Part shown: in pieces, positions 6,613-20,910 of the stretch | How the letters are laid out: every line of letters starts with the position of its first letter | How positions within the stretch are numbered: the first letter of the stretch is position 1 | IMG/VR virus record: IMGVR_UViG_2671181019_000012 | Coordinates: 1-20,910 of that record | Origin: a virus | Lineage: Duplodnaviria; Heunggongvirae; Uroviricota; Caudoviricetes | Length of the DNA: 20,910 bases | Reading direction: 5' to 3' (one strand) | Notes under the pieces: generated by a model | Database searches by the model: none | What the model was told of the DNA's origin: nothing | The model's input: only the letters and a program-made list of their open reading frames with translations | Made by a program: the position numbers and the translations under genes

Positions 6613-6934
6613 GGCCTGTCAGTTTCTCAAGATATCCAGACCTACCGCTACCAACTGGATACGAACAGGCCGCCTACAGGCAACACGCAAAGACCCCACT
6701 AAACTAAAATCTCCTTACCTCACAACACGACAAGCCTGCATTGCGGCGCTTCAGTCTCCGCTGCATACTGTCCAGGTGAGCGCGGGTGATGGCATAACAG
6801 AGGAAAGAAAATGTCACTCTTCCGCAGAGGTGAAATATGGTACGCCAGTTTCACATTGCCGAACGGTAAAAGATTTAAACAGTCTCTTGGAACAAAGGAC
6901 AAAAGGCAGGCGACAGAACTCCATGACAAGCTAA
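6584..6934 (+). CDS. xis: Excisionase (AlpA/Xis-type HTH)
   Basis: [31 protein letters not shown] directly upstream of and overlapping int; ATG 6584 after GAGG. True 3' end uncertain. Confidence 0.55.
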
Positions 6935-7974
6935 AGGCTGAAGCATGGCGGGTCAGCAAACTTGGTGAAATACCTGATATAACGTTCGAGGAAGCGTGTG
7001 TCAGGTGGCTTGAAGAGAAAGCACATAAAAAATCACTGGACGATGACAAAAGCCGGATCGGATTCTGGCTTCAACATTTCGCAGGAATGCAACTAAGAGA
7101 CATTACTGAATCAAAAATTTATTCAGCAATGCAGAAAATGACGAACCGGCGTAATGAGGAAAACTGGAAACTCAGGGCAGAAGCATGCAGAAAAAAAGGG
7201 AAACCTGTTCCAGAATACAAGCCAAAACCAGCGTCTGTTGCAACGAAGGCTACGCATCTTTCATTTATAAAAGCCCTACTAAGAGCCGCAGAGCGTGAAT
7301 GGAAAATGCTGGATAAGGCACCAATTATTAAAGTGCCTCAACCAAAGAATAAACGGATCCGCTGGCTGGAGCCCCATGAAGCACAAAGGCTGATTGATGA
7401 ATGTCCGGAGCCATTAAAGTCTGTTGTTGAATTTGCACTGGCAACAGGCTTAAGACGCTCGAACATCATCAACCTTGAATGGCAACAAATAGATATGCAG
7501 CGCCGGGTGGCATGGATAAACCCGGAAGAGAGTAAATCAAACCGCGCAATCGGCGTTGCGCTGAATGATACTGCATGTCGCGTATTGAAAAAACAAATCG
7601 GGAATCATCACCGTTGGGTATTTGTGTACAAGGAAAGCTGTACCAAACCAGACGGAACGAAAGCGCCAACAGTAAGGAAGATGCGGTATGACGCAAACAC
7701 AGCCTGGAAAGCGGCGCTGAGACGGGCTGGTATTGATGATTTCAGATTTCACGACTTGAGACACACCTGGGCAAGTTGGCTGGTTCAAGCCGGAGTCCCG
7801 TTGTCAGTGTTACAGGAAATGGGAGGCTGGGAGTCTATCGAAATGGTTCGTCGATATGCTCACCTTGCACCTAATCACCTTACCGAACACGCACGGCAAA
7901 TAGACTCGATCCTGAACCCATCGGTCCCAAATTTGTCCCAGTCAAAAAATAAGGAAGGTACTAATGATGTGTAA
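6811..7974 (+). CDS. int: Tyrosine integrase (lambda family; resembles DLP12 IntD from memory)
   Basis: 387 aa; catalytic-region signatures ([16 protein letters not shown]); adjacent to tRNA att core. Confidence 0.9.
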
Positions 7975-7988
7975 CTTATTGATTTAAA

Positions 7989-8037
7989 TGGTGCCGATAA
8001 TAGGAGTCGAACCTACGACCTTCGCATTACGAATGCG
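7989..8037 (-). tRNA. Partial tRNA-Thr(CGU) 3' fragment (thrW-type att core), not a complete gene
   Basis: Minus strand reads CGCATTCGTAATGCGAAGGTCGTAGGTTCGACTCCTATTATCGGCACCA (anticodon loop, T-arm, acceptor 3' strand, CCA); 5' half absent. Confidence 0.75.
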
Positions 8038-8125
8038 TAAATTGATCTTGTAAAATCAATACCTATCGAATTTAAATGGATTTTTTGCCACAATATTGCC
8101 ACAGTTCGTTAGGAATCAGACAGAA

Positions 8126-15158: not shown

Positions 15159-15191
15159 GCCCGACTGGTAAGATCGGGCCTTTTTATTTTT
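15159..15191 (+). terminator. Intrinsic terminator (possibly bidirectional)
   Basis: GCCCGA-ctggtaaga-TCGGGC followed by CTTTTTATTTTT. Confidence 0.6.
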
Positions 15192-15613
15192 CCACTCTGG
15201 CCTGAATGGAACATCCTACATTAGACGTTAAGATCTTACATCTAATTATCCGAAAATACTAATGGATGCGTAGTTGCATTTGACCTGACCGCCCATTTGC
15301 GGGTTACTCTACCATCGCCAATAAAGTCCGGCTACTCGAATTCGGAAGTATTAGGCTATAGGTCATAAACCTGAATAACTGCTATGTGCTGAAGCGGATA
15401 AAGCTGACATCATTATGCACCAATCAACTCGGTGTAAGTCAGCTAGTTGGTGATGGAGTGACTTGTCAATAGTTGTAGCCCCTACCAGTGCATCGGAGAT
15501 TCTTGAGTGTAACCTTAGTTGCTTTAATCAGAAGTAAAGGAAACGTACTATGAAAATCAGTACTCTTAATCAAGAGATCCCCCGTTCTCTCACGGAAAAG
15601 GGGGATTGAATTT

Positions 15614-16876
15614 TCAAATTTTCTTTTTAGCGATAAAAATACAGTAAAAATATAAGGTTTTGATAATGTGATTAATGCTGTGCACCTCGCGAAATAATAG
15701 TAATAGCTTCCTCATAAAAGACATGAAACTAAGTTCGTTGTATTTAGTGCGTTCCATTCCTTCCTTAGCGAAATAGTAGGTTATCATCTGAATTGACTCT
15801 TTATATTCATATTTATAATGTGCAATGCCATTTCGCAGCTTGTTGTCTAAAGCATTGAGATCAACTATATAAAAGCTATCATCCAATCCGCTTATTTTCG
15901 TGCCTAAATCAACGTTTGCATATTCGTTGAGACTAGAAAAACCTTTAATTAAATCGCCTTTTTTATTTAGTCTTACTGAATCGTCAAAAATATTATGATC
16001 TCCGCGTTTTAATAAGTTATTCAATCCGGCCACAATTATTAATTGCCGAGAGAATACTTCAGATAAGTCTTTGTAAAAATTGTTACAGTCATCAAATTCG
16101 GCAGTTGAAACTCGAGCAGGAATCATTGATAAATCTACGTTTTTATCATAATCATAGTAAAGCGCTGGGCGTGAAGGGAGTTCAAAGTCAAGCATTTTGG
16201 GATATAGGCTTAAACAATCGAAATGCAAACTTTTCAGAAACCCACTTCCAATAATATCATCTAAAAATTTATTTAGCTGTTTTGGATGATTTTTCTGAAT
16301 ATAATGAAGAAATTGTGGCATTTTTTCACTAATTTCAGCATTATGTGCATGTATTGTAAAGGGAAATGACATTGCAGAGGTTGCTGTATAAAGTGCGGAA
16401 AGGATATCTTGTATTTTTAGCGAACGAGGTTTTTTCAGAGTAGGTAATTCTTTCATTAGGTTACTGAAAGTATTGTAATTTCCTTGTTTGTATTGAGTAA
16501 TGAGTCGCTGGAGCTTATCGCGATGTTTATAAATATAATTCATTCCATTTAGATGTGCGTTCAGCATTAAGTATTTTTCATGACCTATTGCACTTGTTAT
16601 TTTTAAGAATGCTGTTTTTCCTATTTCGTATTTTCCAAAGCCTACGGGAAAATCTAAATGCAAATCGATGAATGGATTTGTTGTGCCAAAGTCATTGCTT
16701 TCTACAGTTTCCGCACCGTTAAATACAGGCTCTCCCTCCCCAAGAGTAAACGATATATTATTCTCACAATTTGGACATGCAAATTGGAACGGTTGTATGT
16801 CTCGATTAGACATACCTATTCTTGTATCAATGACCGTGTCACATACAAGGCATTTAAATTGCTGTAAAAAATTCAT
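15614..16876 (-). CDS. Zn-ribbon plus HEPN-motif protein (candidate Abi-like RNase)
   Basis: N-terminal CLVCD...CPNC zinc ribbon; C-terminal LRNGIAHYKY matches the HEPN Rx4H motif; AT-rich, monocistronic. Confidence 0.65.
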   Translation of the reverse strand: MNFLQQFKCLVCDTVIDTRIGMSNRDIQPFQFACPNCENNISFTLGEGEPVFNGAETVESNDFGTTNPFIDLHLDFPVGFGKYEIGKTAFLKITSAIGHEKYLMLNAHLNGMNYIYKHRDKLQRLITQYKQGNYNTFSNLMKELPTLKKPRSLKIQDILSALYTATSAMSFPFTIHAHNAEISEKMPQFLHYIQKNHPKQLNKFLDDIIGSGFLKSLHFDCLSLYPKMLDFELPSRPALYYDYDKNVDLSMIPARVSTAEFDDCNNFYKDLSEVFSRQLIIVAGLNNLLKRGDHNIFDDSVRLNKKGDLIKGFSSLNEYANVDLGTKISGLDDSFYIVDLNALDNKLRNGIAHYKYEYKESIQMITYYFAKEGMERTKYNELSFMSFMRKLLLLFREVHSINHIIKTLYFYCIFIAKKKI

Positions 16877-17123
16877 AAATATTTTATTAATCCTATAAAT
16901 TATAAGTTAAGTATTAGTCTTTTATCTACAAACCAAAGCCACTTTACTACTTTACCTAACTGCACTTTAAACAATCATAAGTTCTTTTTTTTTAAAAAGG
17001 TAGTCCAAAGATACCAATTTATTCAATATCAACGAGAATTCGAGACTCCTATGTGAGTAAAAAACTATGAGCTTCATGCCATGCTTTCAATAAATGTCTT
17101 CAGTTACCCATAAATTTACTGGA

Positions 17124-17651
17124 TTAACAATTTGTAGTCTTTCCGACCAAATTACCGCGCGCAGTGTGACCCCATACTTTAGATGTCACCTTATCTCTTT
17201 CCACTAGTTGTTTACGGTGCATCAAATCGGCAAGCAGTATTGAAACAAAGAACATGAATTTTGTTTTGGGAGTATTAGGAACATCTTTGGGTCCAAGCCA
17301 AGGTAGCTGCTCCAGTTGATTTTGTATTTTGGGTGTTGCGAAGCTAACACCATTCCAACTATGCCCAAAAGCATTTCTAATGCTACGCAGTGTGTTTAGT
17401 TCTTTGTATTCGTGTTCCATTATCAGTCCTAACGCATATGCTAAGCCTGTTCTAGCAGCAAAAGATGATAAAGGCGCTGTTGCACCATTCAGTAGACCTT
17501 TAGCTACTTTGTCATTTAACAGGTGAGCCTGGATGATCTCGGATAACCACTCATCGAAAATGGATGCTGCTATTAGAACAGAGCCACGATCTGATTCTTT
17601 ATTTAGTTCGGACAAAAATTGACCGAGTTCAATTTGGGTTTTATCACTCAC
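17124..17651 (-). CDS. HEPN-motif protein (175 aa)
   Basis: RSIRNAFGHSW (Rx4H); GTG start 17651 with AAGGAG RBS. Confidence 0.6.
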   Translation of the reverse strand: MSDKTQIELGQFLSELNKESDRGSVLIAASIFDEWLSEIIQAHLLNDKVAKGLLNGATAPLSSFAARTGLAYALGLIMEHEYKELNTLRSIRNAFGHSWNGVSFATPKIQNQLEQLPWLGPKDVPNTPKTKFMFFVSILLADLMHRKQLVERDKVTSKVWGHTARGNLVGKTTNC

Positions 17652-18120
17652 AGACTCTGGAACTCCTTTCTCAAAAATTCAACATGAGGACGCTTCGGTC
17701 GCACATCAATCTTAACCATTAGATTATGAAATTGTGTTAGGTCTGGGTCAAACTATGAACAAAAACAGAAAAAATTATTGTGACGTTATTTAGGGGGACC
17801 TACAATGACACATTTTAAACAATTACTTTAATATCAATAAATTGGATCGTATTACTGTGTTCCTATTATTGGTTTAGCTCAGCTTGTCGCTCACAGCGGA
17901 CCTTCAGCTCGATAGCAAGTCCGCTCCGTTGGAGTGCCAGATGCGCTCTAAATTTGATGGCTAGTATTGAAGAGATACTTGGGCATCATGGTTATGGTGT
18001 AAATACCGTCTGTGATACCCGCAGAGGTGCTAGGTTTAGGCACTGAGAAGGATACATTGAACATGAATTCAGAGTGATGTAACACAAGTCATAGAAAATT
18101 AGTGATTTATATTGAAAAGG

Positions 18121-18159
18121 GGGCTATTTTATTAAAGCAAGGCCGCCTTTAGGCAGCCT
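18121..18159 (-). terminator. Intrinsic terminator after the three-gene operon
   Basis: AGGCTGCC-taaa-GGCGGCCT (one G-U pair) then U-rich tract, just after the gene C stop. Confidence 0.45.
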
Positions 18160-18165
18160 CTTATT

Positions 18166-18843
18166 TTACATGTAGATATTCATTAAACTGTCAAATAGTC
18201 TTTTGGTTAACTCTTTTTCCGCTCGTGCTTCGATTTGAGCCATACCATTTCGGAAGAGTTTTAATTTACCGCTAAATTCTTGGTCATGAATAGTACATGT
18301 CAATCGATCAAGTCTCATTTTTTTGTGAATAAGCTCATCTTTGAAATATTTTTTAAGATCGCTGGTACTATTAATTTGCATCTTGGCAAGAGCAAATTCA
18401 GCAACTTGAATTTGAGATACATCTAGTTGCACTATATTAAGTGTCAACTCTGTGTTTAAAGAACTGAACCATATGAACGGGTCAATCTCAATCTCTTCTA
18501 AGCTGGTACCAAGACCAAGGTTTTTTACCAGTGCCTGAGCAAATGGTTTAAGTGTTCTCGGTGGATTATCAATAAGTAAAACTGGGGTGTATTGTTCGTC
18601 AAAACTGAAAGATGTTACTCTATATTCAATGCGTTCAACAGCGGTACTGTTGCCGTATAGATTACTTATTCTATCTTCGCTAATTATCTTTTCGATGAAG
18701 CGAGCGTGAAAATGAGATGTTCGTGATTTATCAAATATAAACCCTTTCCCTTTCTCTTCAGTAAAAGGATCACGCATGAGTTTTTCAACTGTTTCACTAG
18801 TAGTGAAACGATTGTTGAGTTTAATCCATTTAAATTTTTTCAT
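18166..18843 (-). CDS. Hypothetical protein, gene C of three-gene operon
   Basis: 225 codons; start overlaps gene B end by 14 nt; AT-rich. Confidence 0.6.
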   Translation of the reverse strand: MKKFKWIKLNNRFTTSETVEKLMRDPFTEEKGKGFIFDKSRTSHFHARFIEKIISEDRISNLYGNSTAVERIEYRVTSFSFDEQYTPVLLIDNPPRTLKPFAQALVKNLGLGTSLEEIEIDPFIWFSSLNTELTLNIVQLDVSQIQVAEFALAKMQINSTSDLKKYFKDELIHKKMRLDRLTCTIHDQEFSGKLKLFRNGMAQIEARAEKELTKRLFDSLMNIYM

Positions 18844-19909
18844 GCTCTTCCACCTTTTTACCCGTCACGATATTATAGGCGTCTGCTGCTGACTGTTCAA
18901 TTAGTAGGCTGATTTTCTTCTTTTCAACTTCATTTGCTGCACGAATAGTAACATTGTATCCACTACCTTTTTGGTTATTGATTCCTTTAATTTGATAGGA
19001 AAAATCAGAGCAATTTTCTGAATCCTTAAAGAAAGCTTCAACCAAAATCCTGTCTCCTATTCCGTTTTTAGGTTTAGCAGACCAAGCAATTCTTCCAATA
19101 TAGTATCCTTTGTTATGTAGTTGGGTGAAAATAGCAGAACTATTAACAGAATCACCTTTTAGAACCGCTTTTTTTACGAATCCTGTCTCGATTTCTTCTT
19201 CTTCCTCGTCATCACCTTTGCTTGTTGAACGGTTAAGCTCTACATTAGTAACGTCGTCAATTTCATATCCACTCAAGCCGCCCATAACCTCTTGAAAAAA
19301 CTGACTTCTTAGCGCTGGTGTAGGAATCGCTTCTAAAGAAATTTCAAACTTTTCAACATCAACGGATTTAATCTTTGACAACTCTTTTTGTAATAGTGTT
19401 ATTACATCTTTAGCCTTTTGGTTCTGAGGCATACGAATATCAACATTATCGTTATTTACAGTAAGATCAATCTTGATGTTTCGGTTGTCTATCTGACGCA
19501 ATGCTGTTCTGGACAAGTCTACTTCTTGGTAGTTTACCTCGATTGCTAAAGACCCATCTTTTTTCGCAGTGATTTTTACTGTTTCACCAGAGCCAGTGGC
19601 TAATTTTCTTTTAACTAACTCTGCTGCTGTTTTTAATTCCGTCTGAGAGGATGATGCTTGAAGCTTGACGCTAGTTATACTCTCTCTTTTATCATAAGTT
19701 TGTACAAGTTCCTTAATAGAATCTAGATCACTATATCCCTGAGGTAGTTTGCAAACCTCTTCAATTAATTCCTCCTTTGTTAAGTCTTGAGCAACAATAA
19801 TACCTTTCCGTAATAATATCTCGCGTAATCTTGCGATGGTAATTCGTTTATGATGAAGTGCATCATATATATTTTTGTCAGTTGCGAAATAAATATTCAT
19901 GTTATTCAT
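18830..19909 (-). CDS. Hypothetical protein, gene B of three-gene operon
   Basis: 359 codons; start overlaps gene A stop by 1 nt (TAATG); acidic DDEEEEE linker mid-protein. Confidence 0.6.
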   Translation of the reverse strand: MNNMNIYFATDKNIYDALHHKRITIARLREILLRKGIIVAQDLTKEELIEEVCKLPQGYSDLDSIKELVQTYDKRESITSVKLQASSSQTELKTAAELVKRKLATGSGETVKITAKKDGSLAIEVNYQEVDLSRTALRQIDNRNIKIDLTVNNDNVDIRMPQNQKAKDVITLLQKELSKIKSVDVEKFEISLEAIPTPALRSQFFQEVMGGLSGYEIDDVTNVELNRSTSKGDDEEEEEIETGFVKKAVLKGDSVNSSAIFTQLHNKGYYIGRIAWSAKPKNGIGDRILVEAFFKDSENCSDFSYQIKGINNQKGSGYNVTIRAANEVEKKKISLLIEQSAADAYNIVTGKKVEEHEKI

Positions 19910-20910
19910 TAACGTTGCTCCATGCCTATAGCTTCAAGACTATATTGAATTACCATTGCAGCTGTTTTTTCGAATGCAACTTTTGAAAACAAACGTTCAC
20001 TTTCGCCTGATAGCCAATGGGCACTATATTTTTGCTTTGCTCTTTCAAAGTGATGAATGGAGTCTTCATGCGGATTTATATGACAATGTCTAATTTTTAT
20101 TCTTTTTGCATCAGTCAGTATTTGATAATTAGAAAGCATGTCAAGGAAATAGATGAACTCATCTTCACTATTCCCTGGTTGATTATAATAAATTACGTAA
20201 CCACTATCTTCTTTTTCACCCATCCAATCGAATTCTTCATGCTTTATTATTATGAATGGTGATGTTAAGACCTCAACAGTAGCTGCAGTCTTATTGTTGA
20301 TAGGATGTTTTATCCTAGTTAGTGCTAAGTCTGGGTAATAGAAATAGTACAAATCTGGTTGAGGTAAAGCCCCGGTACCAATAAGCATTTTAATATCTGA
20401 TGCTATATTTATCATATCGGATATTTTGAATGGATCTAAAAGGTGTAATTTTATGTTTGGGGGGCATTTTATTATTTCAGGGTCGACTTTCTTCATCACG
20501 GATGAGTAAAAATCCTTGTCATAAAGGTTGTCATGATTATAGAGAAATAATAAACCTCGAACTTTGTAACCTAATGACTCATCCCGCACATATCGTTTAC
20601 ACCACTGTTGGCTAATGTTGGCGCATTCTGTAGCGAGAGCTAAAGAAGAAAGTGCACCTTCTACCATCCCTTTGCCGATACTACTTTGAGCATAGCTTTT
20701 GAGGTCTGTGTTCAAGTACACAATCTCTTCTTCATAAGGATCGGTATAGTAAAACACCACATCGCTAGGATGTGTTTTTTTGTCATGAGCCTCTAGGTCG
20801 CAATCCCAGTTCATATCTTGACTAGTAGCTCGTTGCCATTTGAAAATTTTAAAAATATCTTGGGTTATCTTATTTGCAACATGCTGTATTGAAGAGGTCT
20901 CTCCGCCCAT
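19909..20910 (-). CDS. Hypothetical protein, gene A of three-gene operon (possibly 5'-truncated by window edge)
   Basis: 333 codons; ATG is the final 3 bases of the window, so start may be real or the ORF may continue upstream. Confidence 0.55.
   Translation of the reverse strand: MGGETSSIQHVANKITQDIFKIFKWQRATSQDMNWDCDLEAHDKKTHPSDVVFYYTDPYEEEIVYLNTDLKSYAQSSIGKGMVEGALSSLALATECANISQQWCKRYVRDESLGYKVRGLLFLYNHDNLYDKDFYSSVMKKVDPEIIKCPPNIKLHLLDPFKISDMINIASDIKMLIGTGALPQPDLYYFYYPDLALTRIKHPINNKTAATVEVLTSPFIIIKHEEFDWMGEKEDSGYVIYYNQPGNSEDEFIYFLDMLSNYQILTDAKRIKIRHCHINPHEDSIHHFERAKQKYSAHWLSGESERLFSKVAFEKTAAMVIQYSLEAIGMEQR

Follow-up and report, generated by a model that had tools for sequence, protein, structure and literature searches.

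A stand-alone MtlR-type HEPN gene in the defence-cargo slot of an Escherichia coli thrW island as a candidate one-gene abortive-infection system

What does a HEPN-motif protein do when no partner gene stands next to it? The question is posed by the gene for a 175-aa protein in IMG/VR virus record IMGVR_UViG_2671181019_000012 (Duplodnaviria; Heunggongvirae; Uroviricota; Caudoviricetes), of which we analysed positions 1 to 20,910; this whole stretch of 20,910 nucleotides is called the window below. An earlier note, drawn from the letters alone, had described the product as a second HEPN-motif protein with a GTG start, had found no MNT-type antitoxin gene adjacent to it, and had proposed that it was either regulated in trans or an orphan effector. 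We consider it probable, if only just, that the protein is a self-contained, trigger-activated MtlR-type HEPN RNase for abortive infection, by analogy with the solo HEPN protein HepS. The gene and its two conserved motifs are located as follows:

17124..17651, minus strand: coding sequence of a 175-aa single-domain MtlR-type HEPN protein (RefSeq WP_021570025.1, labelled 'MltR family transcriptional regulator').
17355..17387, minus strand: RSIRNAFGHSW, residues 89–99, with the predicted HEPN catalytic residues R92, N93 and H97 (direct reading).
17583..17597, minus strand: ESDRG, residues 19–23, a conserved N-terminal acidic/basic motif with a presumed functional role (based on conservation of E19 and R22).

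The RefSeq coding sequence comprises the same 528 nt as the open reading frame (ORF) at 17124–17651. GTG is the earliest available start downstream of an in-frame stop, and ATG replaces it at the identical position in two orthologues, one from Pantoea vagans (84% identical) and one from an enterobacterial contig (90% identical). Measured against these two orthologues, the ratio of nonsynonymous to synonymous substitution rates (dN/dS) of the gene was 0.08–0.14. The gene is real and purifying selection acts on it, and the length of the protein, its GTG start and the motif at residues 89–99 were as the earlier note had given them.

The HEPN-clan family PF05068 (MtlR) matched residues 23–126 of the protein with 27.8 bits, compared to a Pfam gathering cut-off of 25.2; among relatives of the protein, the same model scored 13–44 bits. 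Structure searches, including Foldseek, returned MtlR, YggD and HepS first and classic HEPN proteins after them. Based on this order, the fold is HEPN and lies in the structural neighbourhood of MtlR, YggD and HepS. When a profile of the family was run against PDB sequences, MtlR was detected with E-values of 2.8e-9 (6kcr) and 2.2e-6 (3brj), and HepS with an E-value of 0.034. The HEPN assignment of the earlier note is upheld by these searches. The protein has the all-alpha, up-and-down bundle of helices found in HEPN proteins, it carries Rx4-6H with a polar residue directly after the arginine (R92-N93-A-F-G-H97), and it matches phrog_22031 over its full length. HEPN proteins typically have a second conserved acidic residue within an Ex3[KR] motif; E19 and R22 of ESDRG are candidates for this element, although they are spaced as Ex2R. 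At the composition of the window, a bare Rx4-6H is expected by chance 0.62 times per 175 aa and is therefore no proof by itself. The chance expectation for R[NDH]x3H is 0.025, and this pattern was present in only two ORFs of the window, that of the 175-aa protein and that of its 420-aa neighbour. The main backing for the HEPN call is the above-threshold Pfam match together with the fold and the invariance of R92, N93 and H97, and not the bare motif.

Close homologues were scarce, with 15 matches in a word-indexed search. At E ≤ 1e-3, an exhaustive profile search retrieved the representatives of 13,782 clusters (50% identity), of which 10,488 had E ≤ 1e-10. Family members mostly have 160–210 aa, and tandem duplications are few. 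The motif [hydrophobic]-R-N-x3-H was found in 159 of the 161 fetched family sequences, the two exceptions being one frameshifted and one truncated copy. In an alignment of 129 relatives with a mean column identity of 19%, only R92, N93 and H97 were invariant, while E19, R22, R89, F95 and F104 were each at least 90% conserved. The N-terminal motif, written as [EDST][STA]DR, was present in 122/161 fetched sequences. Close relatives share W as the second residue after H97, and distant relatives have I, R, S or M at this position. Judged from the alignment, invariance of R92, N93 and H97 among such divergent sequences is the pattern that would be expected for an active HEPN site, and the R...H motif to which the earlier note had drawn attention is one that the homologues keep. 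Separately, three polypeptides of 367–417 aa (P0022, P0037 and P0053) contain two MtlR-type HEPN stretches fused in one chain; such tandem fusions may be covalent versions of the dimer needed by HEPN active sites.

Which part of the MtlR family does the protein belong to? MtlR and YggD (PF05068; PDB 6kcr, 3brj and 3c8g) are a clade of the HEPN superfamily of Anantharaman et al (2013), and it is the Pfam threshold of this family that the 175-aa protein passes. Its helix pair AYALGL...IRNxFxH parallels YGLGV...LREELNH of MtlR, at an identity to MtlR/YggD proteins of only 14–21%. According to Anantharaman et al (2013; PMC3710099), part of the MtlR family consists of predicted active RNases, whereas the motif is gone from the mannitol repressors. 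R-N-x3-H is strict in the family of the 175-aa protein and partly or wholly lost in canonical MtlRs; Vibrio MtlR, for instance, is without it at the aligned site (LKNHLNS). Unlike the mannitol repressor MtlR, the 175-aa gene is not linked to mtlA/mtlD and is found on mobile elements and in defence hotspots. Mannitol genes were found neither near it nor among the commonest Pfam families of the 148 immediate neighbours of its relatives. The NCBIfam MltR model NF008234 was not passed either (30.6 bits compared to a cut-off of 149), and with the label 'MltR family transcriptional regulator' RefSeq probably over-annotates the protein. The 175-aa protein belongs with those family members that are predicted to be active RNases.

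No MNT or other nucleotidyltransferase gene lies adjacent to the 175-aa gene, and none is annotated among the neighbouring island genes. In 78 loci of relatives from many phyla, 287 flanking ORFs formed 279 BLAST clusters, the largest of which had three members. The 148 immediate neighbours matched 143 Pfam families, each represented in at most two neighbours, and no nucleotidyltransferase family recurred among them. The Pantoea vagans orthologue is placed at the tail-fibre/Lom end of a prophage, and the 90% identical orthologue lies in an islet next to ParDE and a DUF4238 gene. The 175-aa gene forms a cassette by itself, without a conserved partner, and the absence of a visible partner that the earlier note had remarked on is borne out both locally and across the 78 loci. 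The MNT antitoxin that it had expected, on the other hand, belongs to the HEPN-MNT clade, whereas the 175-aa protein belongs to the MtlR-type clade. In HEPN-MNT toxin-antitoxin modules, MNT AMPylates the tyrosine of Rx4HxY. The 175-aa protein differs from the toxins of these modules (SO_3166/SO_3165, HepT/MntA) in having W instead of Tyr two residues after the predicted catalytic histidine (RNAFGHSW), in its larger size with extra C-terminal helices, and in the absence of an MNT gene here and near relatives. Some distant family members directly adjoin GmrSD, HsdS plus PIN, and Cap15 genes, and others occur in temperate phages, for example Burkholderia KS9 gp48, which is located just after the replication genes. 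A separate curiosity was seen in Brevundimonas lutea (L077, 3658–8137), where a family member stands between the ORFs for the S-methyltransferase and the pterin/B12 halves of MetH and shares a few bases with each of them, a peculiar layout, be it an insertion or an operon.

If no protein partner is encoded nearby, an antitoxin could be sought in the 514-bp intergenic gap upstream of the gene (17652–18165), where the earlier note had suggested a small RNA or a tiny ORF. The gap ends at the next upstream gene (18166–18843), which is PADLOC Hp3, and the following features were assigned within it:

17723..17751, minus strand: candidate sigma-70-type promoter, TTGACC-N17-CATAAT (10 of 12 consensus matches, and conservation).
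17652..17722, minus strand: leader, or 5' untranslated region, with the conserved element GGTTAAGATTGAT and the Shine-Dalgarno sequence AAGGAG (conserved in the window, L004/L005 and L008).
17705–17717, minus strand: conserved 13-nt element GGTTAAGATTGAT, where transcription of the 175-aa gene is predicted to start (orthologue conservation).
17663–17668, minus strand: Shine-Dalgarno sequence AAGGAG, 11 nt upstream of the GTG (sequence).

Approximately 170 nt upstream of the gene, comprising promoter and leader, are common to the window and the orthologues, and the DNA farther upstream is unrelated. The TTGACC hexamer and its adjacent bases are kept in orthologues from unrelated genomic contexts. 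Support for the promoter comes from this conservation and not from the promoter scan, because the whole scan gave no more sites than shuffled sequence. An operator is one candidate role for the 13-nt element; the transcription start or initial transcribed region is another. No stable fold was found for the leader (z = +0.96) or for the 3' flank of the gene (z = −0.33), and Rfam gave no match in the flanks. A search for type III antitoxin-like repeats yielded short two-copy chance matches only, and antisense promoter-like sites were no commoner than in shuffled sequence. A 23-codon ORF (17648–17719, minus strand) runs across the GTG start (GTGA overlap). It was rejected as a leader ORF for lack of conservation, being cut down to 6 codons in each of the two orthologues. 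Its ATG, moreover, coincides with the predicted transcription start or precedes it. The gap, of which only ~170 nt are conserved, thus offers neither a conserved small ORF nor a structured RNA of the kind that had been suggested.

The window is E. coli chromosome, and the gene lies in an integrative element at a tRNA-Thr gene (thrW, beside proA); a plasmid origin was rejected, as a megablast search of PLSDB gave no match and the locus is chromosomal. The thrW element contains an integrase, VbhA, remnants of TrbL/TrbJ/TraJ, and a HigA-like gene. Directly upstream of the 175-aa gene, across the 514-bp gap, are three further genes:

18166–20910, minus strand: PADLOC Hp3, Hp2 and Hp1 genes, co-directional (full-length matches).

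The PADLOC E-values were 5e-176 for Hp1, 2e-160 for Hp2 and 3e-80 for Hp3, and we take Hp1–Hp3 to be, probably, the Rst_3HP anti-phage system. Hp1 is a PD-(D/E)XK nuclease domain protein according to RefSeq. Rst_3HP is mostly prophage-borne (Tesson et al; PMC9090908). A GC-rich hairpin with a T-rich tail is located just 3' of the Hp3 stop (~18157–18134); it was found by direct reading and is absent from the consensus scan list. Downstream of the 175-aa gene, after a gap of 247 bp, a 420-aa gene constitutes a second solo HEPN-like gene, and all five genes (Hp1–Hp3, 175-aa and 420-aa) are co-directional within 5.3 kb. In three other genomes that were checked, homologues of the 420-aa gene had no MtlR-type neighbour.

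Sister islands have the same backbone (integrase, VbhA, TrbL/TrbJ/TraJ, HigA and thrW) with other cargo between HigA and thrW. In L106 the slot (10952–13767) holds Pycsar and an AAA pseudogene, and in L107 (10120–15533) it holds two gene pairs that resemble Septu and Lamassu, namely AAA+HNH and DUF4297/coiled-coil; both regions correspond to the slot at ~15000–20910 of the window. Based on this varied defence cargo, the slot is a defence hotspot. The 175-aa gene was present in 11 of 5,426 complete E. coli genomes, at least 99% identical in each and each time within the thrW island; it is a rare, accessory gene in this species, seen there only in this island and adjoining the 420-aa gene. E. 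coli variants without Hp1–Hp3 or without the 175-aa gene were rejected as evidence of modularity, as their ends are IS1/ISVsa5 insertions or deletions. The slot of the thrW island is a natural place to seek further defence cargo, because its content varies by strain: two HEPN genes together with Rst_3HP-like genes, a Pycsar system, or Septu-/Lamassu-like genes.

HepS ('HEPN Solo'; Salmonella prophage Gifsy-1; PDB 9oij and 9oik) provides the closest functional comparison, and it acts by abortive infection (Sargen et al, 2026; PMC13043305). HepS works as one HEPN protein with no partner gene; its expression is constitutive, and over-expression causes no toxicity (PMC13043305). At rest, HepS is an inactive tetramer with its R/H residues buried; the siphovirus tail-tip protein J opens this tetramer, upon which tRNA anticodon loops are cut (PMC13043305), the targets being tRNA-Thr/Ile/Ser. 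HepS and the 175-aa protein are both small (<250 aa), stand-alone, partnerless HEPN proteins with RNxxxH that are carried on prophages or mobile elements. The segment AxALGL...IRNxxAH aligns between the 175-aa family and HepS, which has the motif IRNKYAH (R100–H105), and the position of KS9 gp48 after phage replication genes resembles that of hepS in Gifsy-1. The HepS sequence used here was recovered by a degenerate DNA pattern scan of viral contigs; a 43-aa HepS fragment had given no match by tblastn against phages. HepS is longer (214 aa) with different termini, and in Pfam it has a weak match to DUF4145 and not to MtlR. Hence the 175-aa protein is not demonstrably a member of the HepS family, and its trigger and target need not equal those of HepS.

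The mechanism that we propose is modelled on HepS and on general HEPN biochemistry with regard to RNase activity, resting oligomer, trigger, RNA target and defence phenotype. A cassette in the defence-cargo slot of the thrW integrative element would consist of this one gene and its own promoter, from which the protein would be produced constitutively. At rest it would form an inactive homo-oligomer, so that, as proposed here, no antitoxin would be needed. A phage-derived cue would then shift the conformation such that the R92-N93-x3-H97 motifs of two paired protomers form a metal-independent active site. The activated protein would cut host RNA, most likely tRNA anticodon loops, and thereby abort the infection. 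For the orphan effector of the earlier note, HepS is an experimental precedent; the catalytic activity of the 175-aa protein is a property that we infer. By analogy, the protein is a plausible relative of known proteins, by sequence of the MtlR-type family and by likely function of solo-HEPN defence, and not a new type of system.

Several observations weigh against a catalytic, HepS-like protein. E. coli MtlR retains R and H at the aligned positions (ALREELNH), and the motif is therefore no proof of catalysis. MtlR and YggD, the nearest relatives of solved structure, act as regulators or are not nucleases, literature searches found no characterised catalytic MtlR-type member, and no PADLOC v2 model matches the 175-aa protein. 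The similarity to HepS is marginal, both in the profile search (hidden Markov model E-value 0.034) and by hhalign (probability 48%, E-value 1.9e-4, 58 columns), and the two proteins belong to different PHROGs (phrog_5712 for HepS, phrog_22031 for the 175-aa protein). Moreover, many family members lie among housekeeping genes (gyrA, metH, panC), so that a large part of the family could serve the cell in ways other than defence. Part of this evidence would equally suit a non-catalytic MtlR-like regulator that controls island or host gene expression by binding protein or nucleic acid: MtlR and YggD are the top matches in both sequence and structure, the Pfam MtlR threshold is passed, E. coli MtlR has the aligned R and H and no known RNase activity, and housekeeping surroundings are common among the relatives. 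A regulator of this kind nonetheless seems unlikely to us, given the score below the NCBIfam MltR cut-off, the absence of mannitol genes here and around the 78 relatives, and the lack of a recurrent neighbour that could be its regulated gene. A strict R-N-x3-H that includes the polar N across divergent sequences is unexpected for a non-catalytic scaffold, all the more as Vibrio MtlR has lost the motif, and the location in a defence-cargo slot also speaks for a role other than regulation.

The 175-aa protein could instead be a toxin whose antitoxin has escaped notice, be it a small RNA, a tiny flanking ORF or a protein acting in trans. HEPN proteins are frequent toxins of toxin-antitoxin systems (PMC3710099). 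The locus has some elements that would suit such a pair, namely the 23-codon ORF across the GTG start, the conserved 13-nt leader element, and the orphan HigA-like gene with other toxin-antitoxin parts in the island. We regard this explanation as improbable: the ORF shrinks to 6 codons in the orthologues and starts at or upstream of the predicted transcription start, the flanks have no type III-like repeats, Rfam match or stable fold, antisense promoter-like sites occur at the frequency of shuffled sequence, and no neighbour recurs in the 78 loci. The residue two positions after H97 is a W that varies among relatives and not the Tyr that MNT modifies. Very unlikely, in our estimate, is that the protein works as a functional subunit of a neighbour, either as an accessory effector of Hp1–Hp3 or paired with the 420-aa protein in a unit of two HEPN proteins. 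Such an arrangement is suggested by the five co-directional genes in 5.3 kb, by the defence-like nature of both flanking units, and by the constant association in E. coli with this island and the 420-aa gene. Against it, the 84–90% identical orthologues occur without either neighbour, as do the three 420-aa homologues elsewhere without an MtlR-type gene. The 175-aa gene also has its own conserved promoter, the hairpin with T-rich tail follows the Hp3 stop, and gaps of 514 bp and 247 bp set the units apart.

If the self-contained RNase is accepted for the 175-aa protein, might it hold for its relatives as well? Fetched family members are nearly all solo with an invariant RNxxxH, and many are labelled 'MltR family transcriptional regulator' or 'mannitol operon repressor'. 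A tentative and rather doubtful extension is that catalytic MtlR-type proteins are one-gene abortive-infection RNases that together make up a very large, so far overlooked family. Each subfamily could have its own phage trigger, distinct from the tail-tip cue of HepS, and MtlR would be a domesticated and inactivated offshoot of a defence nuclease. If the reading of the 175-aa protein as a solo HEPN RNase is correct, a second and much larger clade would join the class of solo HEPN abortive-infection proteins, which now rests on HepS alone, the label 'MltR family transcriptional regulator' would be misleading for the MtlR-type clade, and sensor and effector would be combined in a compact protein of 175 aa.

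Other features were seen in the remainder of the window. The HigA-family antitoxin-like gene (14701–14958, plus strand) has no annotated toxin partner and is flanked on each side by ~650–700 bp without long ORFs; its product has 85 aa in the window and 94 aa in L106. A match to PtaRNA1, which serves as the antisense RNA antitoxin in a type I toxin-antitoxin pair, was found in Rfam with 48.6 bits, above the gathering score, at 10540–10612 (plus strand); it adjoins trbL and extends into the end of a small gene on the minus strand, at ~10336–10548 according to RefSeq. The traJ-II RNA motif (Rfam, 93.1 bits, also above the gathering score) is located at 13457–13556 (minus strand), just upstream of traJ. 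RefSeq records contain a 112-nt 'tRNA-Ser' at ~7991–8102 (minus strand) beside the island integrase. In the window, no tRNA was detected by ARAGORN or in Rfam at gathering score, and the annotated 'tRNA-Ser' may be what is left of a tRNA-like attachment site, or an artefact of annotation. Two tyrosine-recombinase-like ORFs, both with RFHDLRH, stand in tandem at 6811–7974 and 8096–9199 (both plus strand), and upstream of ~6584 the window differs from reference strains that have the thrW island; a further integrative element or a prophage may thus share this site in a stacked arrangement.
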